A stretch of DNA of 64,000 nt from Gammaproteobacteria bacterium (GCA_013289085.1 JABDAR010000001.1:115864-179863); one strand, 5' to 3'. Shown: positions 10,633-56,494, numbered from the stretch's first letter. The notes: generated from the sequence alone by a model not told the origin. Translations and numbers: made by a program.

Positions 10633-12396
10633 TTAGTTTTGTGTGAACACATTAGTCACATTTTGCCAAAACACTTTTCCAGCAGCATTCGTCTCAACAT
10701 ATACTTCATAGACTTGATTGGTTACTTCAACGCCATCAAGATTATCAAAAGGGGTATTCGTGGTTGAGATTAGACCACCATAAATATAACCCACCATGGT
10801 TTTGCTATGAGGTGGTAGTTTATCTAATTGCAACACGTCACGTTGATCGTAATATTTTTCAATAGGTATAAATATTGCGGAAAGTCCTGTGTATATATGA
10901 GGATCACGTGGATTAGCATTGTATATAGGTTTTAAATTCACATATTCACGCGCATCGCCAGAATAACTTGAACTGATTAAATCTAATATATTTCCATAAG
11001 GCGTAGTGTCATCATAAATTAATTCATTTGTGTCATTCCAATATAAATTAGATAAGCCGCTAAAGGTAGCTACATAGGAAGTGCTGGTATTTCTACTGTG
11101 CATTGCTAAATGAGGGGCAGCATACTGATTTCCCTGTTGTTCAATAAAATTATCGTTAGAATTAATTTGACCATCGAACATAATGCCATTGGTCCATACG
11201 TGTGCAAAAACTTCTGGCGTAAATGGGCCTGCTAAGGCGAATAATGATTCAACACCATTCCACATAAAAGGCGCTAAGGAATAATCGCGTCTTCTCCAAC
11301 CACTGCCATCACCATCATCGTGAACCACGCTTGATAACACTTTTAAATGTAATGTGTGATTGTGGAAATTAGGTTTAGCGATAAATTTATGTATGGCATT
11401 GCTATAGACTTGGCCATCGCCACAATAATCACCTTTACAATTTTGACCAAAAGCTAAATATAAAGCGTGATTAATTTTACCCAAGTGGCCGCCTGTGACT
11501 TGGAAATAATTAGGATAAAGTGGATCACTGGGATTACTTGGACAGGCCGGCGTAGTTGTTGCGCTGCAATAAGCAATATATTTTTTTAAGTGTTTTTCAC
11601 CTTTTTTTACCGCATGCATCATACCAGGGACGTCAACAGCTGTTACAGTATTTAATGTGGTATAGCTTTCATCATCAGGATTGTAATAATAACCACCGAC
11701 GATATACATGATATCGCCATCTTGTAAAAATTCAGGCACAGAACTCGCTAACTGTTGTTGTACTTCAGCAGGTAAATCAGTTGCTGCAATTAAAACAGAT
11801 TTTAATTCATTCTCAATGGGATCGTATACATAAATATCCGTATTAAATTCATTAAAAAAATCATGAAAGCTGCCAAATGATCCACTTAACATTAACCAGT
11901 TATTGTCATGTGTTGCAACCAGCGGTTCACGAAATGCCGGTAATTTTGGTAAAAAAGTGGAAGCTCTAGCCGGTTTTAAAGTAATTTTAGGCAAGCTTTC
12001 TGTGATGAATACTTCGATTGCATAGCGGCTAATGTCGTATCCTGGTGTTGTTAATATTTTGATAGTTTCTTGCACATTTTGATGCGGCCATTTGGCATCT
12101 AAAAGTAAATCAATTTGACATGTGTCCGATGGGCTTAAAATATGACTACATGTAGAGGAATCCAATATAGACAATCCGCTTTTATGCGAAAAATGGCTAA
12201 TATTGATAGGCGTTACTGACGCACTTGAAATATTGGTTACCAAAAATGAGGCCCAAGTTTTTGTAGTGGCGGCAACAGTTTCAGGAAATGGCGTGATGGG
12301 CGTAATTTCCAGCGTATTAGCTTGATTGGCTTGTGCCGTGCAGGCAAAAAACGTAGCAAGTATTAAAGCAAATTTATAATGTGGCCAGTTTTTCAT
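10633..12396 (-). CDS. Secreted hypothetical protein with possible Kelch/beta-propeller repeats
   Basis: Signal peptide (ALILATFFACTAQA). Recurrent Y/W-rich blade-like motifs (GDIMYIVGGYYY, YVYDPIENE). No catalytic motif recognised. Confidence 0.5.
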   Translation of the reverse strand: MKNWPHYKFALILATFFACTAQANQANTLEITPITPFPETVAATTKTWASFLVTNISSASVTPINISHFSHKSGLSILDSSTCSHILSPSDTCQIDLLLDAKWPHQNVQETIKILTTPGYDISRYAIEVFITESLPKITLKPARASTFLPKLPAFREPLVATHDNNWLMLSGSFGSFHDFFNEFNTDIYVYDPIENELKSVLIAATDLPAEVQQQLASSVPEFLQDGDIMYIVGGYYYNPDDESYTTLNTVTAVDVPGMMHAVKKGEKHLKKYIAYCSATTTPACPSNPSDPLYPNYFQVTGGHLGKINHALYLAFGQNCKGDYCGDGQVYSNAIHKFIAKPNFHNHTLHLKVLSSVVHDDGDGSGWRRRDYSLAPFMWNGVESLFALAGPFTPEVFAHVWTNGIMFDGQINSNDNFIEQQGNQYAAPHLAMHSRNTSTSYVATFSGLSNLYWNDTNELIYDDTTPYGNILDLISSSYSGDAREYVNLKPIYNANPRDPHIYTGLSAIFIPIEKYYDQRDVLQLDKLPPHSKTMVGYIYGGLISTTNTPFDNLDGVEVTNQVYEVYVETNAAGKVFWQNVTNVFTQN

Positions 12397-12418: not shown

Positions 12419-12808
12419 TTACTTTAGCAAGCGTATTGATTCATTGTATTGTGCAACAAGCGTATCGGCGGTTAACAAGGTAATGCCTTCAATCATTGAC
12501 TGGGCAATAAGAATGCGATCAAAGGGATCTTTATGAAGCGGGGGTAAGGTATCGATTGCGGCTGCGTGGGCGCTGTTAATTGATAGTTCGAGATATCCAT
12601 TGTCTAGTAAACCTCGACGTAAAGCATGAGGATCTGCACGAAAATCTTCTCGTTTTAATCCACGTTTAATAGCTACTTCCCAAATACTGGCTGGACTAAA
12701 TAGGAGCTCATGTTCCGGATTATTAAGTAAAGTGTGCGCCGTATCTGATAATTGCTCAGGTTGTCCTGCTGCCCATAATAAAAGATGAGTATCTAATAGA
12801 AACTTCAT
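12419..12808 (-). CDS. vapC: PIN-domain toxin VapC
   Basis: LLDTHLLLW N-terminal Asp and C-terminal TLLTADT motif. Overlaps the upstream antitoxin gene by 4 nt. Confidence 0.8.
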   Translation of the reverse strand: MKFLLDTHLLLWAAGQPEQLSDTAHTLLNNPEHELLFSPASIWEVAIKRGLKREDFRADPHALRRGLLDNGYLELSINSAHAAAIDTLPPLHKDPFDRILIAQSMIEGITLLTADTLVAQYNESIRLLK

Positions 12809-13083: not shown

Positions 13084-13806
13084 TTAGTTCATATTTGCAT
13101 TAATTACAAGCGCTTTAATCTGTGCAATCTCAGCTTCCGCATCCTTTATTTGCGCCTTAAATGCATCACTTGCGACAATATTTTTTGCTAAGCTTTGGGC
13201 AAGTTTGACACTGCCTTCAATATCACTGGGGTAATGTACGCCACCCACAATTCGATCTTGGCCTAAGGATAAACCAGTTGCTAATAATTGATCGTGTCGG
13301 TCTGGAAATATTTCCGCATATACTAATGCCAGTGTCATGCCGCGTGTGCCATGACCGCTAGGGTATGAATAACTTTCTTCAATGGGAATCGCAGGTTTGA
13401 TATCTTTGTTGTCCTGATAAGGGCGTGGACGTTTATATTGTACTTTAAATGCATCAATAAAAATTCGAGCATCAGCCATTACCGTTTTCATTAAACTATA
13501 TAATTTTGGATAACGCGCTTCTTCAAAACGCACACCAAGGGCTTGATTAAAATAGCTGGGCTCCAAAGTCACACTGCCCCAAGCACGTTCTATATCATAA
13601 TAAGTACGAGAATTTTGCTCCCACATTAGAATCGCTAGATCTCTTGTCTTTGTTTCAGCATCAGCCGCAGGTGGCGGCAAGGTTTCAAGAGTAATATTTT
13701 GCGGGTCAATAAAAGTAGGGGTTTTAGTGATGGCAAGTGTACTTGCAAAAGCCGAAAAACTGAAAATAACGCTTAAAAATAATATCCCTAAATTACGGTG
13801 CTTCAT
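13084..13806 (-). CDS. Class A non-specific acid phosphatase (PAP2 family)
   Basis: Signal peptide. PAP2 motifs KxxxxxxRP (KRPRPY), PSGH and SRxxxxxHxxxD-like (VGGVHYPSD). Confidence 0.8.
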   Translation of the reverse strand: MKHRNLGILFLSVIFSFSAFASTLAITKTPTFIDPQNITLETLPPPAADAETKTRDLAILMWEQNSRTYYDIERAWGSVTLEPSYFNQALGVRFEEARYPKLYSLMKTVMADARIFIDAFKVQYKRPRPYQDNKDIKPAIPIEESYSYPSGHGTRGMTLALVYAEIFPDRHDQLLATGLSLGQDRIVGGVHYPSDIEGSVKLAQSLAKNIVASDAFKAQIKDAEAEIAQIKALVINANMN

Positions 13807-13838: not shown

Positions 13839-15143
13839 TTACATCAAATAAACAATCTGTGCGCCAACAAAATCTGCTGAAGTTTCATAACTGCCAGTAA
13901 GATGCGTTGCGGGAACCGGCGTACCTGGGAACAGCGTGAGTAATAAATTTTGTTGAGAAAGTGAGCTATTGGCAAAAAAGCTATGCATATAGGCTAAATC
14001 AATGCGCATTAAATCATCCCAATTTTTGGGGGCAATACTTATGCCGATAGAGGCGTCGACGCGATCAGAATCAGGAGATTGTAATGTGCGCGTTTCATCT
14101 GTAATAGGTGATTGATCATAGGCAATACCAGCACGTAATTTAACAGTAGGGTTATATTGATAATTTGCGCCCAAAGCAAGACGCCAAGTATTTTCTAAAT
14201 CTAAAGGGATATCAGATTCAATTGGAGTCCCTAACTGTGCGGAAATAACATAATCATCCCAACGTCCCCAATGGGTAAATATTAAATCTGCTAACAATTC
14301 AATTTTAGGTGTTGCTTGATGAAAGAAACTTAATGTCGCGTAATCAGGTAATAAAAAATTTGAATTGGCCGCAGCAGGTTCAAAGCTGGGTGCATTCACG
14401 GCAGTGGAGGAAGTAGTTAAATAACCGTCAGTATTTTGATCAACAGGAAAAACATAGGCTAAACCCATACGCGTGTCGTCACTCCATTCATAGAGTAAAC
14501 CGACATTAGGATAAAATGCCAAACTATCGCCTGAATATTCAGTAAAAGCTTGTTCACCTTGTGGATCAGTAATTGTTCCAATAGCAAAATTCACTTCATG
14601 GGTAAAATACATAGCATTGACACCTAAACCGACCGATAATTCCTCTGTCATTTGTTTAGCTAAACTTAAATTACCATTATATGAATAGAGTTTACTTTGT
14701 ATGCCATTATATTTAACGGGTGTATTGCCATAATCAGTGACAATCCAATAAGGTGCAGTGATACTCATACCGAGCACCATATCTTCAGTAATAGGTTTGG
14801 CAATATGCAGTGCGGGAATTGGTGTTGACGGAATGCCAGAAGATATTTCTTGGCCGCTAGTATTAGGAATAGGATTGCCGGCACTATCAAATGCAGAATT
14901 AATTGTTAATGTTGAGTCTGGTATAGCATAAGTAATCGCACCGACCACTTGTCCTTCTTCAATTAACATTAAACCTGCTGGATTATAAAAACTAATACTG
15001 GCATCATCGCCCGCTGAAGCCGCACCTGCAAATGCATTCCCCATAGCTGATACACTTTGTTGGTCAACGCTAAGAAAACTTGCAAAACAAGTGTGTGAAG
15101 CTAACAATAAACTCGGTAATAAAACTTTTATCGTATTATTCAT
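13839..15143 (-). CDS. FadL/OMPP1-family outer-membrane transport protein
   Basis: Signal peptide followed by a FadL-type N-terminus (GNAFAGAASAGDDASISFYNPAGL). C-terminal aromatic residue. Confidence 0.7.
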   Translation of the reverse strand: MNNTIKVLLPSLLLASHTCFASFLSVDQQSVSAMGNAFAGAASAGDDASISFYNPAGLMLIEEGQVVGAITYAIPDSTLTINSAFDSAGNPIPNTSGQEISSGIPSTPIPALHIAKPITEDMVLGMSITAPYWIVTDYGNTPVKYNGIQSKLYSYNGNLSLAKQMTEELSVGLGVNAMYFTHEVNFAIGTITDPQGEQAFTEYSGDSLAFYPNVGLLYEWSDDTRMGLAYVFPVDQNTDGYLTTSSTAVNAPSFEPAAANSNFLLPDYATLSFFHQATPKIELLADLIFTHWGRWDDYVISAQLGTPIESDIPLDLENTWRLALGANYQYNPTVKLRAGIAYDQSPITDETRTLQSPDSDRVDASIGISIAPKNWDDLMRIDLAYMHSFFANSSLSQQNLLLTLFPGTPVPATHLTGSYETSADFVGAQIVYLM

Positions 15144-15167: not shown

Positions 15168-15974
15168 TTAAAAGTAGAAATTAACTCCAGCACCTATTTG
15201 CAGGCCACTTGGATTGAAAGTAAATTCATCAGTAACCGTAATTAAAAAACCATCATTTTTACCTTGAGATCCACTAATAGTGCTATTTTCATCTTCATAA
15301 AGCGCATAAAGTGCTTGCAAAGTGAAACTGATATTTTCACCAAAAAATCTTTCAAGACCTGCGCCAAATCTTACTCCAGTTAAATAAAACTTATCATAAG
15401 CAGTACTGATGGGGAATGTAGAATCGTTATTCGCCCAGGCATTGGTTACCGTTTCAAAGTGAGTAAAAATAATCCCAGCTTTAGCAAACACTAGCCATTC
15501 ATCTTCGTCAAAAAACAAGCCCTGTTTGAAGTCTGCACCAAAACTATATTGTGCTTTTGTACTTTGGGTAAAATTAATATTATTAGTATCACCGATAGAT
15601 CTGCCAAAAGTATCAAGAACAGTTTGATCAGAAAAACTTGCATCATGGGGTGCTGCAAATATTTCTATAGCGCTAAGCCAATCGTCATTTTCGTCCCAGC
15701 GCAGGTAACCACCGCCCCGTACTTCAACACTATAATCCGTTACATTATTATCAACATTAAAAGAGGTGGTTGTTTTATGACTTAAATCAGAAAGCGGAAT
15801 TTGATCTACATAGTTAATGTTAATATTATTATCTTGATCAAATTCCCAAATTGTCGCGGTAAAATCACCGCCGAGATAAAATCCATAATCATCTGGACCA
15901 TTTGATTCGCTATTTGCAAATGCGGAGAAGGTATTGCAGGCTAAACATCCTGTTAGTAATATCACTTTTTTCAT
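15168..15974 (-). CDS. Outer-membrane beta-barrel protein
   Basis: Signal peptide starting at the internal MKKVILL. Alternating amphipathic beta-strands. C-terminal FYF. Confidence 0.5.
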   Translation of the reverse strand: MKKVILLTGCLACNTFSAFANSESNGPDDYGFYLGGDFTATIWEFDQDNNININYVDQIPLSDLSHKTTTSFNVDNNVTDYSVEVRGGGYLRWDENDDWLSAIEIFAAPHDASFSDQTVLDTFGRSIGDTNNINFTQSTKAQYSFGADFKQGLFFDEDEWLVFAKAGIIFTHFETVTNAWANNDSTFPISTAYDKFYLTGVRFGAGLERFFGENISFTLQALYALYEDENSTISGSQGKNDGFLITVTDEFTFNPSGLQIGAGVNFYF

Positions 15975-16042
15975 GACGCTTTCCTTAAAGAAAGACAGCG
16001 TAATATAAGTGAAACTAGGAGTCAATTTTTATTGATTTAATA

Positions 16043-48589: not shown

Positions 48590-49687
48590 TTAATCATCCC
48601 AGGATAATGATCCACCGGTTTGATATTCAGTGACTCTCGTTTCGAAGAAATTTTTCTCTTTTTTCAAATCAATCATTTCACTCATCCATGGGAATGGATT
48701 GGTGGCGCCTTTGTATTGTTCGGGTAAACCGATTTGTAGTAGGCGACGGTTGGCGATGAATTCTAGATATTCTCTGAACATATTGGCATTCAGCCCTAAA
48801 ATACCGCGGGGCATGGTATCTATCGCATATTGATATTCTAATTCTACGCCTTGTTTCACAATATCAATCGCTTCTTGTTGGAATTCAGGTGTCCATACAT
48901 GTGGATTTTCAATTTTGATTTGATTAATGACATCAATACCAAAATTTAAATGCATGGATTCATCACGCAGAATATATTGGAATTGTTCACTCGTGCCGAT
49001 CATTTTATTACGACGGCCCATGGAGAGTACTTGCACAAATCCTACATAGAAAAATATCCCTTCAAATACCACATAAAACGCAATTAAATCACGTAATAAA
49101 CGTTGATCATTTTCAGGTGTACCGGTATGGAAATTAGGGTCTGCCAAACTTTCTGTATAAGGCATGGCCCAAGCGGCTTTTGCAGCAACTGATGGTACTT
49201 CACGGTACATATTAAATGCACGCGCTTGATCGATACCCAAACTTTCAATGACATATTGATAAGCATGCGTATGAACGGCTTCTTCAAATGCTTGACGCAA
49301 TAAATATTGGCGGCATTCTGGATTGGTAATATGACGATATACCGCTAGCACTAAATTATTAGCAACTAATGAATCTGCAGTGGAAAAAAAGCCAAGATTA
49401 CGTTCAATAATAGTGCGTTCATCTTCAGATAAACCATCCGGTGTTTTCCATAAGACCACATCAGCGGCCATATTGATTTCTTGAGGCATCCAGTGATTGG
49501 CGCAACCATCATTATATTTGCCCCAAGCCCAATCGTATTTAATTGGTTCTAATTGATTAACATCCGCGCGACAATTGATCATGCGTTTTTCATCAACTTG
49601 AATCGGCGCTGCAAACATTTGCGGCGCTTCTAGGCCTATTACAGCTTTTGGTGCAGAGGCAGTTATGGTAGCGAGTTGTTCAGACAT
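48590..49687 (-). CDS. nrdB: Ribonucleotide reductase class Ia beta subunit
   Basis: Diiron ligands and tyrosyl-radical site, NrdB fold. Confidence 0.9.
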
Positions 49688-49709
49688 TTTATTATTCCTT
49701 TAATTTATA

Positions 49710-52565
49710 TTATTGACATGCTTCACAATCTGGATCAGTAATTAAGCATGCTTTAGGCTCAGTTTGTGTACTTTGCACTGCATTCAAAACACCTAGAGCA
49801 ACGGTAGATTTTTCACTATCGGTTGCGCCCAAACTGCGTAAATAATACGTGGTTTTAAGACCTAAACGCCATGCTAATTTATAAAGCTCATCCATTTTTT
49901 TACCAGAAGGTTGACCCATGTATAGATTAAGTGATTGTGCTTGATCGATCCATTTTTGTCTGCGAGAAGCGGCTTTAATGAGCCATGTGGCATCAATTTC
50001 AAAAGCGGTTGCATACAATTGTTTTAATTCATTCGGAATTCTGTCAATTTTTTGAATACTACCGTTAAAATATTTCAAATCATTGACCATCACATCATCC
50101 CATAAATTGCAGGCTTTTAAATCGCGCACTAAATAAGGATTGATCACCGTAAATTCACCGGATAAATTCGATTTTACAAATAAATTTTGGAAGGTAGGTT
50201 CGATAGATTGTGCCACACCGCAAATATTAGAAATCGTCGCAGTCGGTGCAATCGCCATCGTATTAGAATTACGCATACCCACTTTTTTCACACGTTGGCG
50301 CAATGTATTCCAATCCATGGTTGAGCGTGTATCTTGATCTAAAAATTCACCGCGAGATTGTTTTAAAATTTGAATTGAATCGATAGGGAGTATACCTTTG
50401 CTCCATAAAGATCCTTCAAAAGTTTCGTACGCGCCACGTTCAGCAGCTAAATCAACGGATGCGTCAATCGCATAATAACTAATCGCTTCCATCGTCGTAT
50501 CAGCAAATTGTACGGCTTCTTCAGAAGTATAAGCTACGCGTAATTGATGCAAAGCATCTTGGAAACCCATAGTGCCTAAACCCACTGGACGATGACGTAA
50601 GTTAGAACGACGCGCTTGTGGTACAGAATAAAAGTTAATGTCGATTACATTATCCAACATGCGCATGGCAGTACGTACAGTTTTTTGTAATTTAACATGA
50701 TCTAATTTGCCATCATCGGTTAAATGTTGGACCAAATTCACGCTACCTAAATTACAGACGGCAATTTCATCCGCAGAAGTATTCAGGGTAATTTCTGTAC
50801 ATAAATTAGAACTGTGAACCACGCCCACATGTTGTTGTGGCGAGCGTAAGTTACAAGGATCTTTAAATGTGATCCATGGATGTCCTGTTTCAAATAACAT
50901 GCCTAACATTTTACGCCACAGTTTTACCGCAGGAATTTGCTTGCTGAATATTTTACCCATTTGCGCTTGTGCTTCGTAATGCGCATAACGTTCGTCAAAA
51001 GCGCTGCCGTATAAATCATGTAAATCAGGCGCTTCATCAGGAGAAAAAAGTGTCCAAGGTTTATCTTCGAGTACGCGTTTCATGAATAAATCAGGAATCC
51101 AATTGGCAGTATTCATATCATGGGTACGACGACGTTCATCCCCAGTATTTTTTCTAAGATCAAGAAATTCTTCAATGTCCATATGCCAAGTTTCAAGGTA
51201 AGCACACACAGCACCTTTACGTTTTCCGCCTTGATTAACAGCAACTGCAGTGTCATTAGCGACTTTCAAGAAGGGTACGACACCTTGTGATTTACCATTA
51301 GTGCCTTTGATATGGGCATGCATGGCGCGCACGGGTGTCCAATCATTACCTAAACCACCAGCATATTTAGACAATAACGCATTATCACGAATCGCATTAT
51401 AAATCCCGGATAAATCATCAGGAATAGTGGTTAAATAACAGCTGGATAATTGTGGGCGCAGCGTGCCGGCATTAAATAATGTGGGCGTTGAGCTCATGTA
51501 ATCAAAGCTGGATAATAATTCATAAAACTCAATTGCACGTGCGTTTTTGTCTTTTTCAGCCACGGCTAAACCCATAGCGACACGCATAAAGAAGATTTGT
51601 GGCATTTCAAAACGGACGTCTTTATGATGGATAAAATAACGATCATAAAGGGTTTGTAGGCCCAAATAAGTAAATTGAAAATCACGTTCTGGTTTTAAGG
51701 CTTGTGACAATTGATATAAATCAAAGGTTCTTAATTGTGCATCAAGCAATTCAAGACTAATCCCACGTTCAATAAAATCAGGAAGGGTTTGTGCATAAAG
51801 TGTTTGCATCGTGGCAAATGATACGGTGGTATTAACGTTTAAAAATGCTAAGGCTTCTTCGTACAAATCGATCAGCAGCAAGCGTGCACAAGCGTATGAA
51901 TAATTGGGTTCTTTTTCGATTAATGTACGGGCGCTCATAATGGCGGCTTTATGAACATCCGCAACGCGAACGCCATCAAATAAATTGCGTTTGGTTTCAT
52001 CGATAATAAGTTGTGGTTCAACTTCAATTAAATCTTTGCACGCATCTTGAATGATGATATCCAGTTGTAAATGAGATAAAGGTACTTGTTGGCCATTAGC
52101 AAGCGTCACTTTGAGTTCAGTGGTACTTGCGAGTTCTTGTTCTTGGCTCGCGCGCAGGCGTTTACGTTCTTCACGATAAAGTACATATTCACGGGCTACT
52201 TTTTGTAGGCCTTCACGCATTAAGGTGAGTTCTACTTGATCTTGAATATCTTCAATATGAATCATGCCACCTGCGGGTAGGCGACGCTTAAATGTGTTCT
52301 GCATGGTTTGTGATAAACGTTCTACAGTTTCATGCACGCGCGTAGAAGCTGCGGCATTACCACCTTCAACGGCTAAAAATGCTTTAGTCATAGCAATGGC
52401 AATTTTATGGGCATCAAATGGGGTGATTTTGCCATTACGACGGATTACATGTAATTTGCCAGGTTCAGTTGCACCCACAGGTATTTGGGATCCAGCAGTA
52501 TTTAATCTGGACTTATTTAGTACTGTATCGGTGGATGTTGCTGCTATGGACATCATGTCGCTCAT
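49710..52565 (-). CDS. nrdA: Ribonucleotide reductase class Ia alpha subunit
   Basis: ATP-cone at the N-terminus, catalytic Cys residues, C-terminal CxxC. 951 aa. Confidence 0.9.
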   Translation of the reverse strand: MSDMMSIAATSTDTVLNKSRLNTAGSQIPVGATEPGKLHVIRRNGKITPFDAHKIAIAMTKAFLAVEGGNAAASTRVHETVERLSQTMQNTFKRRLPAGGMIHIEDIQDQVELTLMREGLQKVAREYVLYREERKRLRASQEQELASTTELKVTLANGQQVPLSHLQLDIIIQDACKDLIEVEPQLIIDETKRNLFDGVRVADVHKAAIMSARTLIEKEPNYSYACARLLLIDLYEEALAFLNVNTTVSFATMQTLYAQTLPDFIERGISLELLDAQLRTFDLYQLSQALKPERDFQFTYLGLQTLYDRYFIHHKDVRFEMPQIFFMRVAMGLAVAEKDKNARAIEFYELLSSFDYMSSTPTLFNAGTLRPQLSSCYLTTIPDDLSGIYNAIRDNALLSKYAGGLGNDWTPVRAMHAHIKGTNGKSQGVVPFLKVANDTAVAVNQGGKRKGAVCAYLETWHMDIEEFLDLRKNTGDERRRTHDMNTANWIPDLFMKRVLEDKPWTLFSPDEAPDLHDLYGSAFDERYAHYEAQAQMGKIFSKQIPAVKLWRKMLGMLFETGHPWITFKDPCNLRSPQQHVGVVHSSNLCTEITLNTSADEIAVCNLGSVNLVQHLTDDGKLDHVKLQKTVRTAMRMLDNVIDINFYSVPQARRSNLRHRPVGLGTMGFQDALHQLRVAYTSEEAVQFADTTMEAISYYAIDASVDLAAERGAYETFEGSLWSKGILPIDSIQILKQSRGEFLDQDTRSTMDWNTLRQRVKKVGMRNSNTMAIAPTATISNICGVAQSIEPTFQNLFVKSNLSGEFTVINPYLVRDLKACNLWDDVMVNDLKYFNGSIQKIDRIPNELKQLYATAFEIDATWLIKAASRRQKWIDQAQSLNLYMGQPSGKKMDELYKLAWRLGLKTTYYLRSLGATDSEKSTVALGVLNAVQSTQTEPKACLITDPDCEACQ

Positions 52566-52605
52566 AAACTACTCCTTGGTATTTTTTGAAACACAAATCA
52601 GGAAA

Positions 52606-52653
52606 AGCACAATATATAGGTTTTTTTTAGTCACACTACACAAGATAGCGTGT
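52606..52653 (-). promoter_or_regulatory. Two NrdR-box-like palindromes upstream of nrdA
   Basis: CACAATATATAGG, centred about 52614, and ACACAAGATAGCGTGT at 52638-52653. Centres are about 32 bp apart. Confidence 0.35.
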
Positions 52654-52692
52654 CTTGACCCCGTTGACAAGGTGATGACTCTGGGGGTTTTT

Positions 52693-52701
52693 TGTGGATA
52701 A
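52693..52701 (-). promoter_or_regulatory. DnaA box (TTATCCACA on the minus strand)
   Basis: Exact 9-mer consensus, about 130 bp upstream of the nrdA start. Confidence 0.5.
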
Positions 52702-53027
52702 TCTGTGGCTTATTTTCATAAAAACGAAAATGTTTTCAGATTCCTCAGCTTGCAGTAGGTAAGTTTGTTAAATTATCTTAGGAAAAATAAATAAAAATAT
52801 TTTTCTTGACACCAACCCTTTTTATGCATGCCTATGCACAGACTTATTCACAGCTGTTTATTTTATGACAGGAATAAAAAAATTAATAGCGATTTTTTTA
52901 AAAGACCTTAATATTTTCATAAGTTATTGAAAAATAATGTAAAAATTTATTAGTTTTTAGGCTTATTCGATATAACTTATTGTATTGTTTGAAAGTTTGA
53001 GAGATCTTGACAAGATATTCACAGAGT

Positions 53028-53036
53028 TATCCACAG
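53028..53036 (+). promoter_or_regulatory. DnaA box TTATCCACA
   Basis: Exact 9-mer consensus in the nrdA upstream region. Confidence 0.45.
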
Positions 53037-53042
53037 GAAGAA

Positions 53043-53068
53043 CCCGTCACTGTGAGAGCAGTGACGGG
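53043..53068 (-). terminator. Stem-loop (10-bp perfect stem cccgtcactg/cagtgacggg) downstream of the 53082 gene
   Basis: GC-rich hairpin followed on the minus strand by TTCTTCC. Confidence 0.45.
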
Positions 53069-53081
53069 AATATACACATGA

Positions 53082-54335
53082 TCACTCATTGGCGCTTACA
53101 GTATCACCGCATAATTGAATGGATGAATTAGGAGCACTAGTGCTGAAGGCAGCTGCGCTCCAAAGAGTGCCATTGACTTGAGCATGGCTTGTGCCCGGAC
53201 ATGTTGTGGTAATTGCAGGAATTGTAGGTGTCAACAGAAAAGTACTACCGGATAAAACTGAGCCATCAAGCTGTGCACCCGCATTGATTAGCACTTGTCC
53301 AGCACCCATTCCGACTCCACTATTTCCTTGCATAATCCAGAATACATTAGCGGCTGTAGAGAGTGGTGTACCTGTACTTTGATATTGGAATACTGTGTTT
53401 GAATCAATCTCTAAATTAGTTCCCGGGGTAACGAAAAAGTAATAATTTTGATTTCCAAATCCAGTTAATGTAATCGTACCTTGAACAAAGACTGTATCAC
53501 CACTAGCGGGACTTAAACTATAGCAACCAGGTCCTCTACTTTCGTTGTTCAGCCCATTAATAGGCATACAACCAGTCATGCCATTTAATTGAGTATAAGC
53601 TGATGCTAAATCCGATAATGCTGCTGTGTATATAGGATCTGGGCTTATAAGTTGATTATTGTAGAATGTTCCATCAGAGATAAAAGAAAATTGGAGTGGA
53701 TTAGAAGCACCACTTGAACCTATGTTACCATCGATTTGTGCTGAACCACTACCGGTATTAGCAACCACGCCAATTGTTGGCATTGGGGTACTACCGGCTA
53801 ATAAAGCAAAACTTGCACCTGAACCAATGACTGAAACTTCGGCATCTATTTCAGCCGTTAATTCTGATTGCTCACGTGTTTCCACCCCTATAAATAATTG
53901 GCGGTCAATTGTTTTTTGTAATATTTGTCCAGCTCCACCACAAGCCGGTGGGGTTACTGTCATCGTGATCGTGCATGTTGCAGATCCTGTTGTATATCCT
54001 GTGATAGAACCTGACCCTATACCAGCAGTGCTAGCCTGGATACAGTTACCCGTTCCGCCCACTACAAAAGCCGTCATGAGACCCGTAGCTGTATCGGCAG
54101 TATAAGTAATGACATGAATATTATCTAAATTAATTGTATTTGCTTCGGCGTTTACAAGAGTATACACAACAGGTCTAGCACCACTACCACAAGTAACATC
54201 CATAAAATCTGTAACAGGAGAGAAGCTAATGGGAATATCGAGCACTTCTACTTCTTGCGCTTGTGCAACTCCAGTTAATAAACTTGACAAGCAACTAAGT
54301 GCAAGTAATTTATAGTTAAATTTTTTCTTTTTCAT
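53082..54335 (-). CDS. Secreted Gly/Ser/Thr-rich protein with C-terminal DUF3494 (ice-binding-like) domain
   Basis: Signal peptide. C-terminal motifs typical of the DUF3494 beta-solenoid (SDLASAYTQLNG...NVFWIMQGNSGVGMGAGQVLINAGAQLDGSVL). Paralogous to 54428-55567. Confidence 0.55.
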   Translation of the reverse strand: MKKKKFNYKLLALSCLSSLLTGVAQAQEVEVLDIPISFSPVTDFMDVTCGSGARPVVYTLVNAEANTINLDNIHVITYTADTATGLMTAFVVGGTGNCIQASTAGIGSGSITGYTTGSATCTITMTVTPPACGGAGQILQKTIDRQLFIGVETREQSELTAEIDAEVSVIGSGASFALLAGSTPMPTIGVVANTGSGSAQIDGNIGSSGASNPLQFSFISDGTFYNNQLISPDPIYTAALSDLASAYTQLNGMTGCMPINGLNNESRGPGCYSLSPASGDTVFVQGTITLTGFGNQNYYFFVTPGTNLEIDSNTVFQYQSTGTPLSTAANVFWIMQGNSGVGMGAGQVLINAGAQLDGSVLSGSTFLLTPTIPAITTTCPGTSHAQVNGTLWSAAAFSTSAPNSSIQLCGDTVSANE

Positions 54336-54427
54336 AATTAATAATCCTCAATTCTTGTTAATATTATTCCAACTACGTTAAAAAAGTATAGATGCAGCCT
54401 AAAGTAAATCAACTACATAACAAATAT

Positions 54428-55567
54428 TTATTCAAAAATAGCCACAGAATCACCATACAAAGTAATAGCCTCTAAAGACCACAAGTGACCAATCACACTT
54501 GCAGGACTTGGGCCATTTGGTGAGGTGGTAATATTTCCGCCTGAAAGCACTGTGCCATCTAACTCAGCACCAGATTCGACTTGTATATTAGCGCCATGTC
54601 CAGTAATCCAATAAACGCGATCCTTTGTAGCACCATTTTTGTAAATAAATGTTGTTTCTGATTTTATGTGCAAATTACAAGGTGCACTTGATGATGCGGG
54701 AGAAGGGAAACAATTATTCTTGCCATCATCTACAAAGAATGCAAAAACACCATTACCTGATAAAACAATGGGACCGTCTACACTCACTTCATTAAGCCCT
54801 GAATCGCTGGTTAAGCAATAATAAGAAGCTTGTAATTCTGTAGGAGGGCTAATATCAGTATGTATACGGCAGTTTGCTTTATTCGCTATAAATTGAGTAT
54901 ACGCTGCAAGAAATCCATTATTGGCATTGATGACGTTTAGGTCGGTTGCTGATGTATATAATTGACCATTAGTAACGCTAAATGGCCCGGAAATGGGGGT
55001 ACTGCCATCGGTATGACCAATACTGCCCACCACGTTTGAAACTGAACCTTTGTTAGCTACTTCAGCACCTAATATTGCAAAAGAATCCCCTCCACCTAAT
55101 GTTGTATATTCAAAAGAAAATTTTGCAGTGGCTATTACTTGTAGTGTACTTACACCGACTTCTAAAATTCTGTCAATGACTCCGATAATTGGACCATTGG
55201 TGCAGCTCGCAGGTGTAATGATGAGATTAATATTACAGGTATTATGTGGAGGATTCCCGGACAATTTAGTATGCCCATCTAGTGGACAAGTGGTCAGACT
55301 TCCAGGCGCATCGAAAGGTTGTACAGAGACTAGAGCATCAGGAAAACTATCTTTGTTAATAATGTCCGCAGGGTAGATAAGAATAGGATTATTTTCTTCT
55401 AAATTGGTTACAGTAAATAGTGCATTGGTGGACGCGCCGCCACAATTAATATTGGCAATGTTAGAGACAAGTTTAAGCGTGACATCAGGCTCCCATGATG
55501 CGTTTGCCATTGAAGCAAAACAAAATAATAGACTGGTTAAAGTAATTTTTTTTGTGTACATGTTCAT
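54428..55567 (-). CDS. Secreted paralog with DUF3494 (ice-binding-like) C-terminal domain
   Basis: Signal peptide. Same C-terminal architecture (GFLAAYTQF...RVYWITGHGANIQVESGAELDGTVLSGGNIT). Confidence 0.55.
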   Translation of the reverse strand: MNMYTKKITLTSLLFCFASMANASWEPDVTLKLVSNIANINCGGASTNALFTVTNLEENNPILIYPADIINKDSFPDALVSVQPFDAPGSLTTCPLDGHTKLSGNPPHNTCNINLIITPASCTNGPIIGVIDRILEVGVSTLQVIATAKFSFEYTTLGGGDSFAILGAEVANKGSVSNVVGSIGHTDGSTPISGPFSVTNGQLYTSATDLNVINANNGFLAAYTQFIANKANCRIHTDISPPTELQASYYCLTSDSGLNEVSVDGPIVLSGNGVFAFFVDDGKNNCFPSPASSSAPCNLHIKSETTFIYKNGATKDRVYWITGHGANIQVESGAELDGTVLSGGNITTSPNGPSPASVIGHLWSLEAITLYGDSVAIFE

Positions 55568-55577
55568 TATTTTTCCT

Positions 55578-56399
55578 TTAAATTGTTAAGCGGACACCGA
55601 GTAATAGTGATTGAGCGTTTACATCAAGTTCTGTATCGCTGACTTCAAAGGGGAAATCGTCAGCGCCTTGAATATTTATATCGTCAAAAGCAGTGTATAA
55701 ATATTGCAGTGAAATATCTAAGTCACCTAAGACTTCATAATCTACACCCACACCAAATTCATAGGCAAAGCCGCTACTATTAGTGTCAGATAGACTAAAA
55801 CCGGGTATAGGAACGCCAGGATTAGGGATCCAATCCAAATTAGTAGTATTCCAAGCAATGCCTAATCCAGCTAAACCGTAAAAAGAAAAATCACGAATGG
55901 TTAACACATCAAAGGCGACATCAAACATCAAGCGCGTGCTACTGAAATCGGAAGAATAAGTCGCATCTTTATCATCTTCGTGACCAAAACGCAGAACATC
56001 ACCTTCCATATCGCTTTCACCAATAACGTAAACATTAATTTGTGGAGTGATAGTATCAAACCAAGCAATGCCAGATTCCATTTTAGATTCTTCGGCATCT
56101 TCACCCCAATATAAGGGCATGACATAACCGACACCGAATTGTCCGGTCCAAGTATCCCAGTCATTGCCATTGCTTTGAGTAAGGACATCTACTTCATCAG
56201 GTGCAACTTTGATACTACCATCATCTTGATTCAAGGTGGCAATACCTAAGAGTAATGACAATTGAAAGTCACCTTCAAGCAGATAGTCATAACTGCTGTC
56301 TTCATAGTCATCATCATCAGGACAGTTGCAACGTGCAAATGCATTATGAGACATAAGTAAGAGTGCTGTGCTGCTAATTAAAAAATGGTGCAAGCGCAT
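55578..56399 (-). CDS. Outer-membrane beta-barrel protein
   Basis: Signal peptide and amphipathic beta-strands. Sits 10 bp upstream of the DUF3494 paralog. Confidence 0.5.
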   Translation of the reverse strand: MRLHHFLISSTALLLMSHNAFARCNCPDDDDYEDSSYDYLLEGDFQLSLLLGIATLNQDDGSIKVAPDEVDVLTQSNGNDWDTWTGQFGVGYVMPLYWGEDAEESKMESGIAWFDTITPQINVYVIGESDMEGDVLRFGHEDDKDATYSSDFSSTRLMFDVAFDVLTIRDFSFYGLAGLGIAWNTTNLDWIPNPGVPIPGFSLSDTNSSGFAYEFGVGVDYEVLGDLDISLQYLYTAFDDINIQGADDFPFEVSDTELDVNAQSLLLGVRLTI

Positions 56400-56494
56400 A
56401 ATAGTTCCTTCTAAATGTTATCCTTGAAAATAAAGCTTTGATTAGTATAGTGGATTAAATATAATGATGCTAACACATATATGGAGCAACACAA

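Follow-up and report, generated by a model that had tools for sequence, protein, structure and literature searches.

A small outer-membrane barrel coupled to Ig-tagged secreted proteins with ice-binding-like heads: a possible envelope docking or display cassette of Legionellales

Here we analyze a stretch of 64,000 nucleotides from a Gammaproteobacteria bacterium (GCA_013289085.1 JABDAR010000001.1:115864-179863), referred to below as the window, in which three minus-strand genes at positions 53,082 to 56,399 lie between nrdA and icd. The first gene of this triad encodes a small outer-membrane beta-barrel protein (OMP), and the other two encode secreted paralogs, A and B, which we call the cargo proteins. 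Comparison of related loci indicates that the conserved unit is a barrel plus a cargo protein tagged with an immunoglobulin-like (Ig) domain, because the C-terminal domain of the cargo varies while the Ig domain stays; the DUF3494, or ice-binding-like, domain would then be the commonest of several interchangeable heads. With belief and doubt in about equal measure, we propose that the triad is an operon for an envelope docking or display cassette of flat-faced binding proteins, typical of Legionellales. The original prediction, which was made from the sequence alone, had read the triad as a surface-display or secretion module of DUF3494 paralogs and a dedicated OMP. Our results largely support that interpretation and refine it: the barrel is of an anchor type, the linked element is the Ig domain, which had been missed, and the arrangement is modular and widespread in Legionellales.

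Linkage and divergence of the barrel and cargo genes

We gathered 27 loci of OMP relatives in GTDB species genomes and a further 16 in JGI metagenomes, and scanned every open reading frame (ORF) in them with hidden Markov models (HMMs) for the OMP, for the N-terminal Ig domain of the cargo (N-domain) and for the ice-binding-protein-like (IBP-like) C-terminal domain. Merging of OMP copies at an identity of at least 95% left 39 non-redundant OMPs. An N-domain protein is encoded directly downstream of 28 of these 39, with gaps that are mostly 2-38 bp, and directly upstream of another two, and nine OMPs have neither neighbour. Of these nine, two lack available downstream sequence and a third is a gene fragment; in the case of L008, the OMP is followed by a 507-aa protein that matches the Ig-domain HMM weakly (7.3 bits) and was counted as unlinked. 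Thus, 30 of the 39 copies adjoin Ig cargo, in many genomic contexts, which agrees with the earlier view that the OMP is a dedicated partner and not a generic, unlinked porin. The linkage persists down to about 30% OMP identity and across chromosomal sites, cargo heads and genera. Linked cassettes were found in at least six metagenome-assembled genomes (MAGs), two Tatlockia MAGs, Legionella jamestowniensis and metagenome contigs, and several Legionellales MAGs contain five to seven cassettes each. Furthermore, for more distant OMP homologs that are encoded elsewhere on the chromosome, the next gene, within 15-20 bp, codes for a protein with a signal peptide. The adjacency of barrel and Ig domain is not due to chance, because the N-domain family is rare: an exhaustive profile search recovered 95 representatives in 1.84 billion proteins.

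The heads carried by the cargo proteins differ from cassette to cassette. An Ice_binding or IBP-like head is present in at least 17 cassettes and a BNR_2/sialidase-like propeller in at least five, and the remaining cassettes have tandem Ig or unassigned domains; the N-domain HMM detects cargo even when the C-terminal part is unrelated (e.g. L010_549, 29.9 bits, E 1.8e-10). The cargo protein of L. jamestowniensis (RefSeq WP_058448754.1) is annotated as an 'ice-binding family protein' and has a Pro-rich stalk that joins its Ig and solenoid domains. With respect to the phylogenetic spread of the triad, the expected linkage does recur, but the element that travels with the barrel is the Ig domain and not DUF3494. 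The distances between OMPs and between cargo Ig domains are correlated (Mantel r 0.68, p 2e-4, 20 pairs), and the cassettes therefore seem to have duplicated and diverged as units.

Each part of the cassette (DUF3494 protein, Ig domain, small OMP) is of a known kind, and it is their conserved coupling that appears to be undescribed. Our literature searches found nothing that links DUF3494 to Legionella or to a partner outer-membrane protein, and nothing on ice-binding, or on SPOR beta-barrels, in Legionella that describes a barrel-cargo pairing. At L010:3611-4396 and L011:992-1777, a gene for a polysaccharide deacetylase (PF01522) lies directly upstream of one barrel-plus-cargo cassette; a secreted polysaccharide deacetylase has recently been reported as a Legionella type II secretion substrate (PMC12239567).

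The triad stands out from its well-conserved surroundings by rapid evolution. When the window is compared with the sister genomes L006, L003 and L004, identity is 89-97% for the products of icd and nrdA but 54-68% for OMP, 39-64% for A and 30-65% for B. In the comparison with L006 alone, the two flanking gene products reach 95-97% identity, as against 61% for OMP, 39% for A and 30% for B. In addition, the cargo genes occur in tandem, with two copies in the window, three in L003 and at least eight past one OMP on contig Ga0206861_1018, whose array of Ig plus IBP-like paralogs (L016:6001-12839, L059:1-7383) is interrupted by a small GIY-YIG gene. Fast divergence together with amplification is what would be expected for exposed surface proteins of host-associated bacteria. 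Between the B gene and nrdA of L003 (10549-14983), the third Ig plus IBP-like gene is accompanied by a gene for a 1095-aa Cadherin_3-domain protein, both on the opposite strand.

Domains of the cargo proteins and nature of the barrel

By inspection, both cargo proteins have a Sec-type signal peptide, comprising residues 1-23 of A (cleavage between MANA and S) and residues 1-26 of B (cleavage between VAQA and Q). We considered lipoprotein anchoring of the cargo and rejected it: neither LLFC in A nor ALSC in B fits the lipobox [LVI][ASTVI][GAS]C, and the Cys is not kept among B orthologs. Nearly all A orthologs have a Cys upstream of the predicted cleavage site for signal peptidase I, at a distance of 7-8 residues, but the F, V, I or L that precedes this Cys mismatches the lipobox (55499-55567 in the window).

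The signal peptide is followed in both proteins by an Ig domain of about 130 residues, in which four cysteines are conserved and which contains the motif C-x-I-x-L-x3-P-x2-C...IDR-x-L. No Pfam model directly matches the N-domain of A or that of B. Structural comparison of the Ig domain of A with Foldseek gave matches to FimC, PapD and CEP192-ASH, at E-values of 3e-4 to 1.6e-3 and a probability of 1.0. About two thirds of the N-domain representatives are single-head proteins of 340-690 aa and the remainder are giant multi-Ig proteins, whose repeats belong to HYDIN/VesB/ASH, Cep192_D4, DUF1573 and DUF7933 (PF22544, PF15780, PF07610). Fold and profiles thus suggest that the N-domain belongs with the PapD-like, ASH and HYDIN-VesB Ig domains, from which it would differ as a divergent four-cysteine branch of the PapD/ASH superfamily. 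A chaperone-usher system, which a PapD-like fold might bring to mind, was rejected, as neither the operon nor its flanks contain genes for an usher (PF00577), a two-domain chaperone or pilins. Elsewhere in the window, the minus-strand gene at 10633-12396 encodes a 587-aa protein with a signal peptide and an N-terminal ASH-like Ig domain that gives a weak match (11.6 bits) to the N-domain HMM; its C-terminal domain is unassigned and no barrel gene adjoins it, and a PIN/VapC-like ORF (12419-12808) is located just upstream.

The C-terminal domain of A matches PF11999 (Ice_binding) with 39.8 bits against a cutoff of 28.7, over residues 168-375 and profile positions 5-207 of 208. The AlphaFold2 model of A (mean confidence, pLDDT, 81.6) shows stacked strands over residues 163-376, and a Foldseek search of the PDB returned 31 chains of ice-binding proteins at E<=1.2e-7, with a best E of about 1e-9. 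Superposition on these solved proteins, with TM-scores on the target of 0.7-0.8 (up to 0.80), confirmed the beta-solenoid proposed earlier. The structural matches include FfIBP, AnpIBP, TisAFP, LeIBP, ColAFP, SfIBP_1 and Cryosericum proteins, and the sequence identity of A to characterised ice-binding proteins is 15-25%. For B, the earlier assignment of a C-terminal DUF3494 domain has to be qualified, since the protein alone has no Pfam match. Its placement in the DUF3494 family is by homology, because it aligns with A over the full length (28% identity, E 1e-18, in accordance with the two being paralogs, as had been proposed), because its ortholog P0012 matches PF11999 (E 3e-7), and because a joint profile of A and B matches the solved ice-binding protein FfIBP (E 1.6e-8). 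The sequence motifs that had been quoted fared unevenly: AYTQ is present in both proteins, AYTQ.NG is present in B only, and the long second motif matches neither of them; the core that they have in common reads [FY]WI...GA[EQ]LDG[TS]VLSG. The reported richness in Gly, Ser and Thr was evident, as these residues account for 28% of A and 34% of B and for 18-19% of the icd and nrdA products. Both proteins are rare. No NCBIfam model matches A or B, a metagenome scan with the A/B alignment yielded no relatives, and among 5.8 billion proteins we found seven relatives of A and five of B. The orthologs are labelled as Legionellales or Gammaproteobacteria MAGs, and exact copies of A, B and OMP are present on contigs of JGI sample 3300020618.

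Protein A shares the solenoid-plus-helix fold with the DUF3494/IBP-1-fold proteins FfIBP (4nu2), AnpIBP (7bwy), TisAFP (3vn3), LeIBP (3uyu) and ColAFP (3wp9) and, like bacterial DUF3494 members, has a signal peptide. It differs from them in being fused to a PapD/ASH-like Ig domain and in being genetically coupled to a barrel; furthermore, B does not reach the Pfam threshold, and the host lineage here, Legionellales, is not ice-associated. The same overall logic is seen in SfIBP_1 of Shewanella frigidimarina (6bg8), which has been proposed to be an ice adhesin, combines tandem beta-sandwich domains with a DUF3494 domain and ranked 16th among the structural matches of A; in SfIBP_1 as well as in A and B, a beta-sandwich stalk carries a DUF3494 head. 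Vance et al. 2018 are said to have described SfIBP_1 as lipid-anchored and as using BIg-type domains. A and B, in contrast, have no lipobox, contain a single Ig domain of the PapD/ASH-like type, and have a partner barrel gene.

The OMP was correctly recognised at the outset as a beta-barrel outer-membrane protein: it matches PF13505 (OMP_b-brl) with 36.1 bits against a cutoff of 28.7, and its AlphaFold2 model, built with 14 homologs (pLDDT 80.3), is a barrel. The protein starts, by inspection, with a Sec-type signal peptide (residues 1-22, MRLHHFLISSTALLLMSHNAFA, cleaved between NAFA and RCNC), which is followed by an acidic, disordered tail with a CxC motif (residues 23-43) and by a beta-barrel with long strands (residues 44-273) and a short helix (residues 99-109). 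It is strongly acidic, with 49 Asp plus Glu against 9 Lys plus Arg. The model contains 9-10 DSSP strand segments, and we give the number of strands as 8-10; because of strand parity, the barrel most likely has eight membrane strands with tall extracellular hairpins. Its C-terminus (...LLLGVRLTI) lacks the aromatic residue of the beta-signal, and homologs end in I, V or L, which is atypical yet consistent family-wide. The family is a narrow one, with 16 relatives among 5.8 billion proteins, confined to Legionellales.

Foldseek matched the OMP to Pla/OmpT, OmpA, Ail, OmpX, OmpW/OprG, OpcA, NspA and Legionella Dot/Icm-associated porins. At the sequence level only Ail and OmpX were matched, marginally (E 0.06-0.6), and in NCBIfam the OMP matches Rickettsia Adr below threshold (21.5 bits against a cutoff of 210). 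The original prediction had raised the question whether the OMP resembles a two-partner or autotransporter-like exporter, and its size, its Pfam matches and its fold all speak against this. TpsB/Omp85 transporters are proteins of about 550 aa or more, with a 16-strand barrel and POTRA domains. Our OMP has 273 aa, about half of that, and shows no match to ShlB, Bac_surface_Ag or POTRA models at E<=1; structures of the Omp85 family are absent from its top 50 Foldseek matches, and the single BAM-complex chain listed (9n2d_B) is a weak match (TM-score 0.19). The beta-domain of autotransporters has 12 strands (PF03797) and a passenger that is fused or threaded. Again, no PF03797 match was found for the OMP at E<=1, cargo and barrel are made as two proteins, each having a signal peptide, and the NalP translocator ranked 38 and 49 with TM-scores of 0.17-0.25, against OmpT, Pla, OmpA, Ail and OmpX at the top. 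By its Pfam match and its modelled fold, then, the OMP is a small adhesin- or anchor-type barrel like OmpX, Ail, OmpA and OmpT, and because of this likeness 'anchor' is a better description than 'exporter'.

Some homologs of the OMP (L037:5611-6693, L032:5539-6693 and L056:551-1660), including that of L. jamestowniensis, whose gene lies just upstream of the cargo gene, have a SPOR peptidoglycan-binding domain N-terminal to the barrel, at the place where the OMP of the window has its acidic CxC tail and, according to Pfam, no SPOR domain. This suggests that the N-terminus of the barrel is periplasmic and that the SPOR-barrel proteins may be structural tethers. In function, they would resemble OmpA, as both combine a peptidoglycan tether with a barrel, with the domain order reversed.

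With OmpX/Ail, OmpA, Opa/OpcA/NspA, Rickettsia Adr and the omptins, the OMP shares its size, the PF13505 family, long strands that protrude from the membrane and the Foldseek matches; it differs from these small adhesin barrels in that the sequence similarity is marginal and in that its family ends in Ile, Val or Leu instead of the usual aromatic residue. The OmpX/Ail, OmpA, Opa-type and omptin barrels act alone as adhesins, proteases or tethers, and we know of no small adhesin or anchor barrel with a dedicated, co-transcribed Ig-domain partner. A like genomic logic is found in PorP/SprF-like proteins, which adjoin type IX secretion adhesins, and in Slam, which adjoins its surface lipoproteins: in these cases too, a gene for a small or medium barrel is multiplied per genome, each copy beside the surface protein that it serves. 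It should be noted that the barrel families, the phyla and the secretion machinery all differ, and that A and B have neither the type IX C-terminal domain nor a lipobox, so the likeness is one of mode of working and not of family.

Possible display mechanism and competing explanations

In the mechanism that we envisage, the OMP would be inserted as a barrel in the outer membrane, and A and B would cross the inner membrane by Sec and get to the cell surface, probably via the type II secretion system. They would be retained there by docking of the Ig domain on the cognate barrel, and the flat face of the solenoid would be presented outward to bind a regular surface. The ligand would most plausibly be a polysaccharide or a host or particle surface, in keeping with amoeba-associated bacteria, and not necessarily ice. 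The presence of a SPOR domain in some OMP homologs suits a structural anchor role for the barrel. Some Legionella type II substrates remain on the cell surface (PMC12239567), and the DUF3494 proteins of bacteria from ice-free settings have been proposed to bind other surfaces (PMC11645318). In addition, work on the binding of cellulose by cyst-wall lectins compared the three-sided beta-helices of the Jonah lectins of Acanthamoeba to the helices of ice-binding proteins (PMC11423589).

On the other hand, several points weigh against this proposal. Firstly, the contact between the barrel and the Ig domain is something that we infer. Secondly, a barrel of 8-10 strands cannot export a folded protein, and we have therefore assumed a separate export route for the cargo; a type II secretion signal, in turn, cannot be read from sequence. 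Thirdly, about seven to nine OMP homologs have no adjoining cargo gene (e.g. L020 and L024). Fourthly, the Ig domain is present in tandem in some cargo proteins (L017, L019) and resembles the generic Ig repeats of giant adhesins; it may thus serve for spacing instead of docking. Fifthly, co-divergence of adjoining genes is also expected from simple co-inheritance. Finally, the cargo could equally be held at the periplasmic side of the barrel.

The docking proposal can be extended to a surface display system used throughout Legionellales, in which an eight-strand barrel, SPOR-tethered in some cases, would capture type II-secreted cargo via its PapD-like Ig domain, with beta-strand augmentation by the protruding hairpins of the barrel as a possible mode of binding. 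With five to seven copies per genome, the interchangeable heads would serve to attach the bacteria to protist hosts or to cellulose-containing cyst walls. We offer this extended version tentatively, and regard it as rather doubtful in its entirety.

Among the other explanations, a periplasmic envelope module is unlikely but deserves serious consideration. According to this explanation, the cargo stays in the periplasm, where it binds the N-terminal tail or the turns of the barrel, or peptidoglycan, and functions in envelope architecture or maintenance. Normal OMP topology puts the N-terminus of the barrel in the periplasm, where some homologs have their SPOR domain; moreover, the cargo has a Sec signal peptide only, with no recognisable signal for export across the outer membrane, the barrel is too small for translocating the cargo, and the flat solenoid faces could bind glycan chains. 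However, housekeeping proteins of the periplasm do not usually diverge as fast as the cargo or undergo tandem amplification; the Pro-rich stalk, the BNR and IBP-like heads and the Ig relatives in giant adhesins are typical extracellular features, and the OMP of the window is one without a SPOR domain.

It is also possible, although we think it quite unlikely, that A and B are genuine ice-binding proteins which, anchored to the cell by the barrel, adhere to ice or inhibit its recrystallisation and so help the bacteria to survive freezing and thawing in peat, soil or groundwater; this would be compatible with the display proposal. In support of it, A scores above the Pfam threshold for Ice_binding, every one of the best structural matches is an ice-binding protein characterised by experiment, and habitats that freeze in season have yielded relatives, e.g. 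a SPRUCE peatland MAG. Architectures that combine beta-sandwich and DUF3494 domains are known candidate ice adhesins, and an anchored 'ice adhesin' of this kind (SfIBP_1, 6bg8) provides a precedent (PMC11645318). Nevertheless, the identity of A to real ice-binding proteins is low, as mentioned above, and hundreds of bacteria that live where it does not freeze also possess DUF3494, in a role that is not known (PMC11645318). The carriers also include Legionella and Tatlockia of ordinary soil and water, and the fact that the same barrel-Ig chassis bears BNR propellers and other heads argues that the system is not ice-specific.

That barrel and cargo are functionally unrelated neighbours, i.e. that the cargo is freely secreted and shares its transcript only by coincidence with a small porin or structural OMP, is very improbable: some barrels of the family do stand alone (the L020 and L024 cases cited above) and the interaction between barrel and cargo is presumed, but the adjacency in 30 of the 39 non-redundant copies spans sites, heads and genera, and both families are rare and clade-restricted. 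The least probable explanation is that the barrel is a dedicated exporter of the cargo, similar to a two-partner or autotransporter system split across genes, because the tight, conserved, barrel-first adjacency, a barrel of about the size of an autotransporter beta-domain and the Pro-rich linker of the L037 cargo, which could in principle thread the barrel lumen, are set against the lack of any Omp85, POTRA, ShlB or PF03797 match and the small size and poor NalP likeness described above, against window cargos that have no linker between their domains, and against the fact that a single barrel serves from two to at least eight cargo genes.

The role of DUF3494 in bacteria that never meet ice is an open question, and the linkage of barrel, Ig domain and DUF3494 gives it a testable context, all the more as the same chassis also bears sialidase-like propellers. 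If the barrel is indeed the docking site, the cassette would be a simple, two-component way to decorate a Gram-negative surface with soluble secreted proteins. If the docking and display proposal is true, it would define a new, fast-evolving family of surface proteins in intracellular parasites of amoebae, a group that includes human pathogens. One of the carriers, L. jamestowniensis, is culturable, which makes direct tests possible.

Organization of the locus

The ORF list reproduces exactly the gene arrangement described at the outset, three minus-strand genes between nrdA and icd separated by gaps of 10 bp (OMP-A) and 92 bp (A-B). The coordinates of the genes, domains and putative signals are given in the table.

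Features of the triad and its surroundings, in positions of the window
Feature	Position	Strand	Description
OMP gene	55578-56399	minus	273 aa, outer-membrane beta-barrel (ORF list)
Cargo A gene	54428-55567	minus	379 aa (ORF list)
Cargo A, Ig domain (aa 24-157)	55097..55498	minus	PapD/ASH-like beta-sandwich; conserved C42, C94, C111, C122
Cargo A, DUF3494/ice-binding-like domain (aa 158-379)	54431..55096	minus	beta-solenoid, flanking helix aa 210-228
Cargo B gene	53082-54335	minus	417 aa, diverged paralog of A (ORF list)
Cargo B, Ig domain (~aa 27-169)	53829-54257	minus	from N-domain HMM
Cargo B, DUF3494-like domain (~aa 170-417)	53085-53828	minus	extra loops
Putative ribosome-binding site of OMP gene			GAAGGA, upstream of start
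Putative ribosome-binding site of A			AAGGA, overlapping OMP stop codon
Putative ribosome-binding site of B			GAGGA
Promoter-like site	56444..56473	minus	TTAGCA-18-TATACT, in 95-bp divergent spacer between OMP gene and icd; consensus match only
Intrinsic-terminator-like hairpin	53043..53068	minus	10-bp stem, 7 GC pairs, T-rich tail; 14 bp past B stop
nrdA	49710-52565	minus	nrdAB, 48590-52565
icd	56495-57724	plus	followed by cspD, clpS, clpA

The three genes are probably co-transcribed as one operon, because of their spacing, their conserved order and the single, strong terminator: the hairpin downstream of B is the sole terminator-like site on the minus strand within the scanned region 52400-56700. 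Promoter-like sites show no excess over chance in the region (14 observed versus 13.9 expected), and an internal promoter in the spacer between A and B (54385-54412) was rejected, the promoter-like match there being not above chance. The original prediction also spoke of a module 'inserted' between nrdA and icd. This is not supported: a recent horizontal insertion was rejected in view of a normal GC content (about 0.40, similar to that of the flanks) and of the presence of the triad at the same icd-nrdA site in four sister genomes (L003, L004, L005 and L006). An Rfam scan of 52300-56800 gave no matches. The spacer between the terminator-like hairpin and the start of nrdA (52566-53042) is unusually long, at about 480 bp, is AT-rich (GC about 0.30) and, like the rest of the scanned region, has no Rfam match.

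The window contains another small barrel-like ORF on the minus strand (15168-16025, 285 aa). It is followed by a 434-aa ORF (13839-15143, minus), which from a look at its sequence is a candidate FadL-type outer-membrane channel, and then by a signal-peptide ORF (13084-13806) that, judged by eye, may encode an acid phosphatase.

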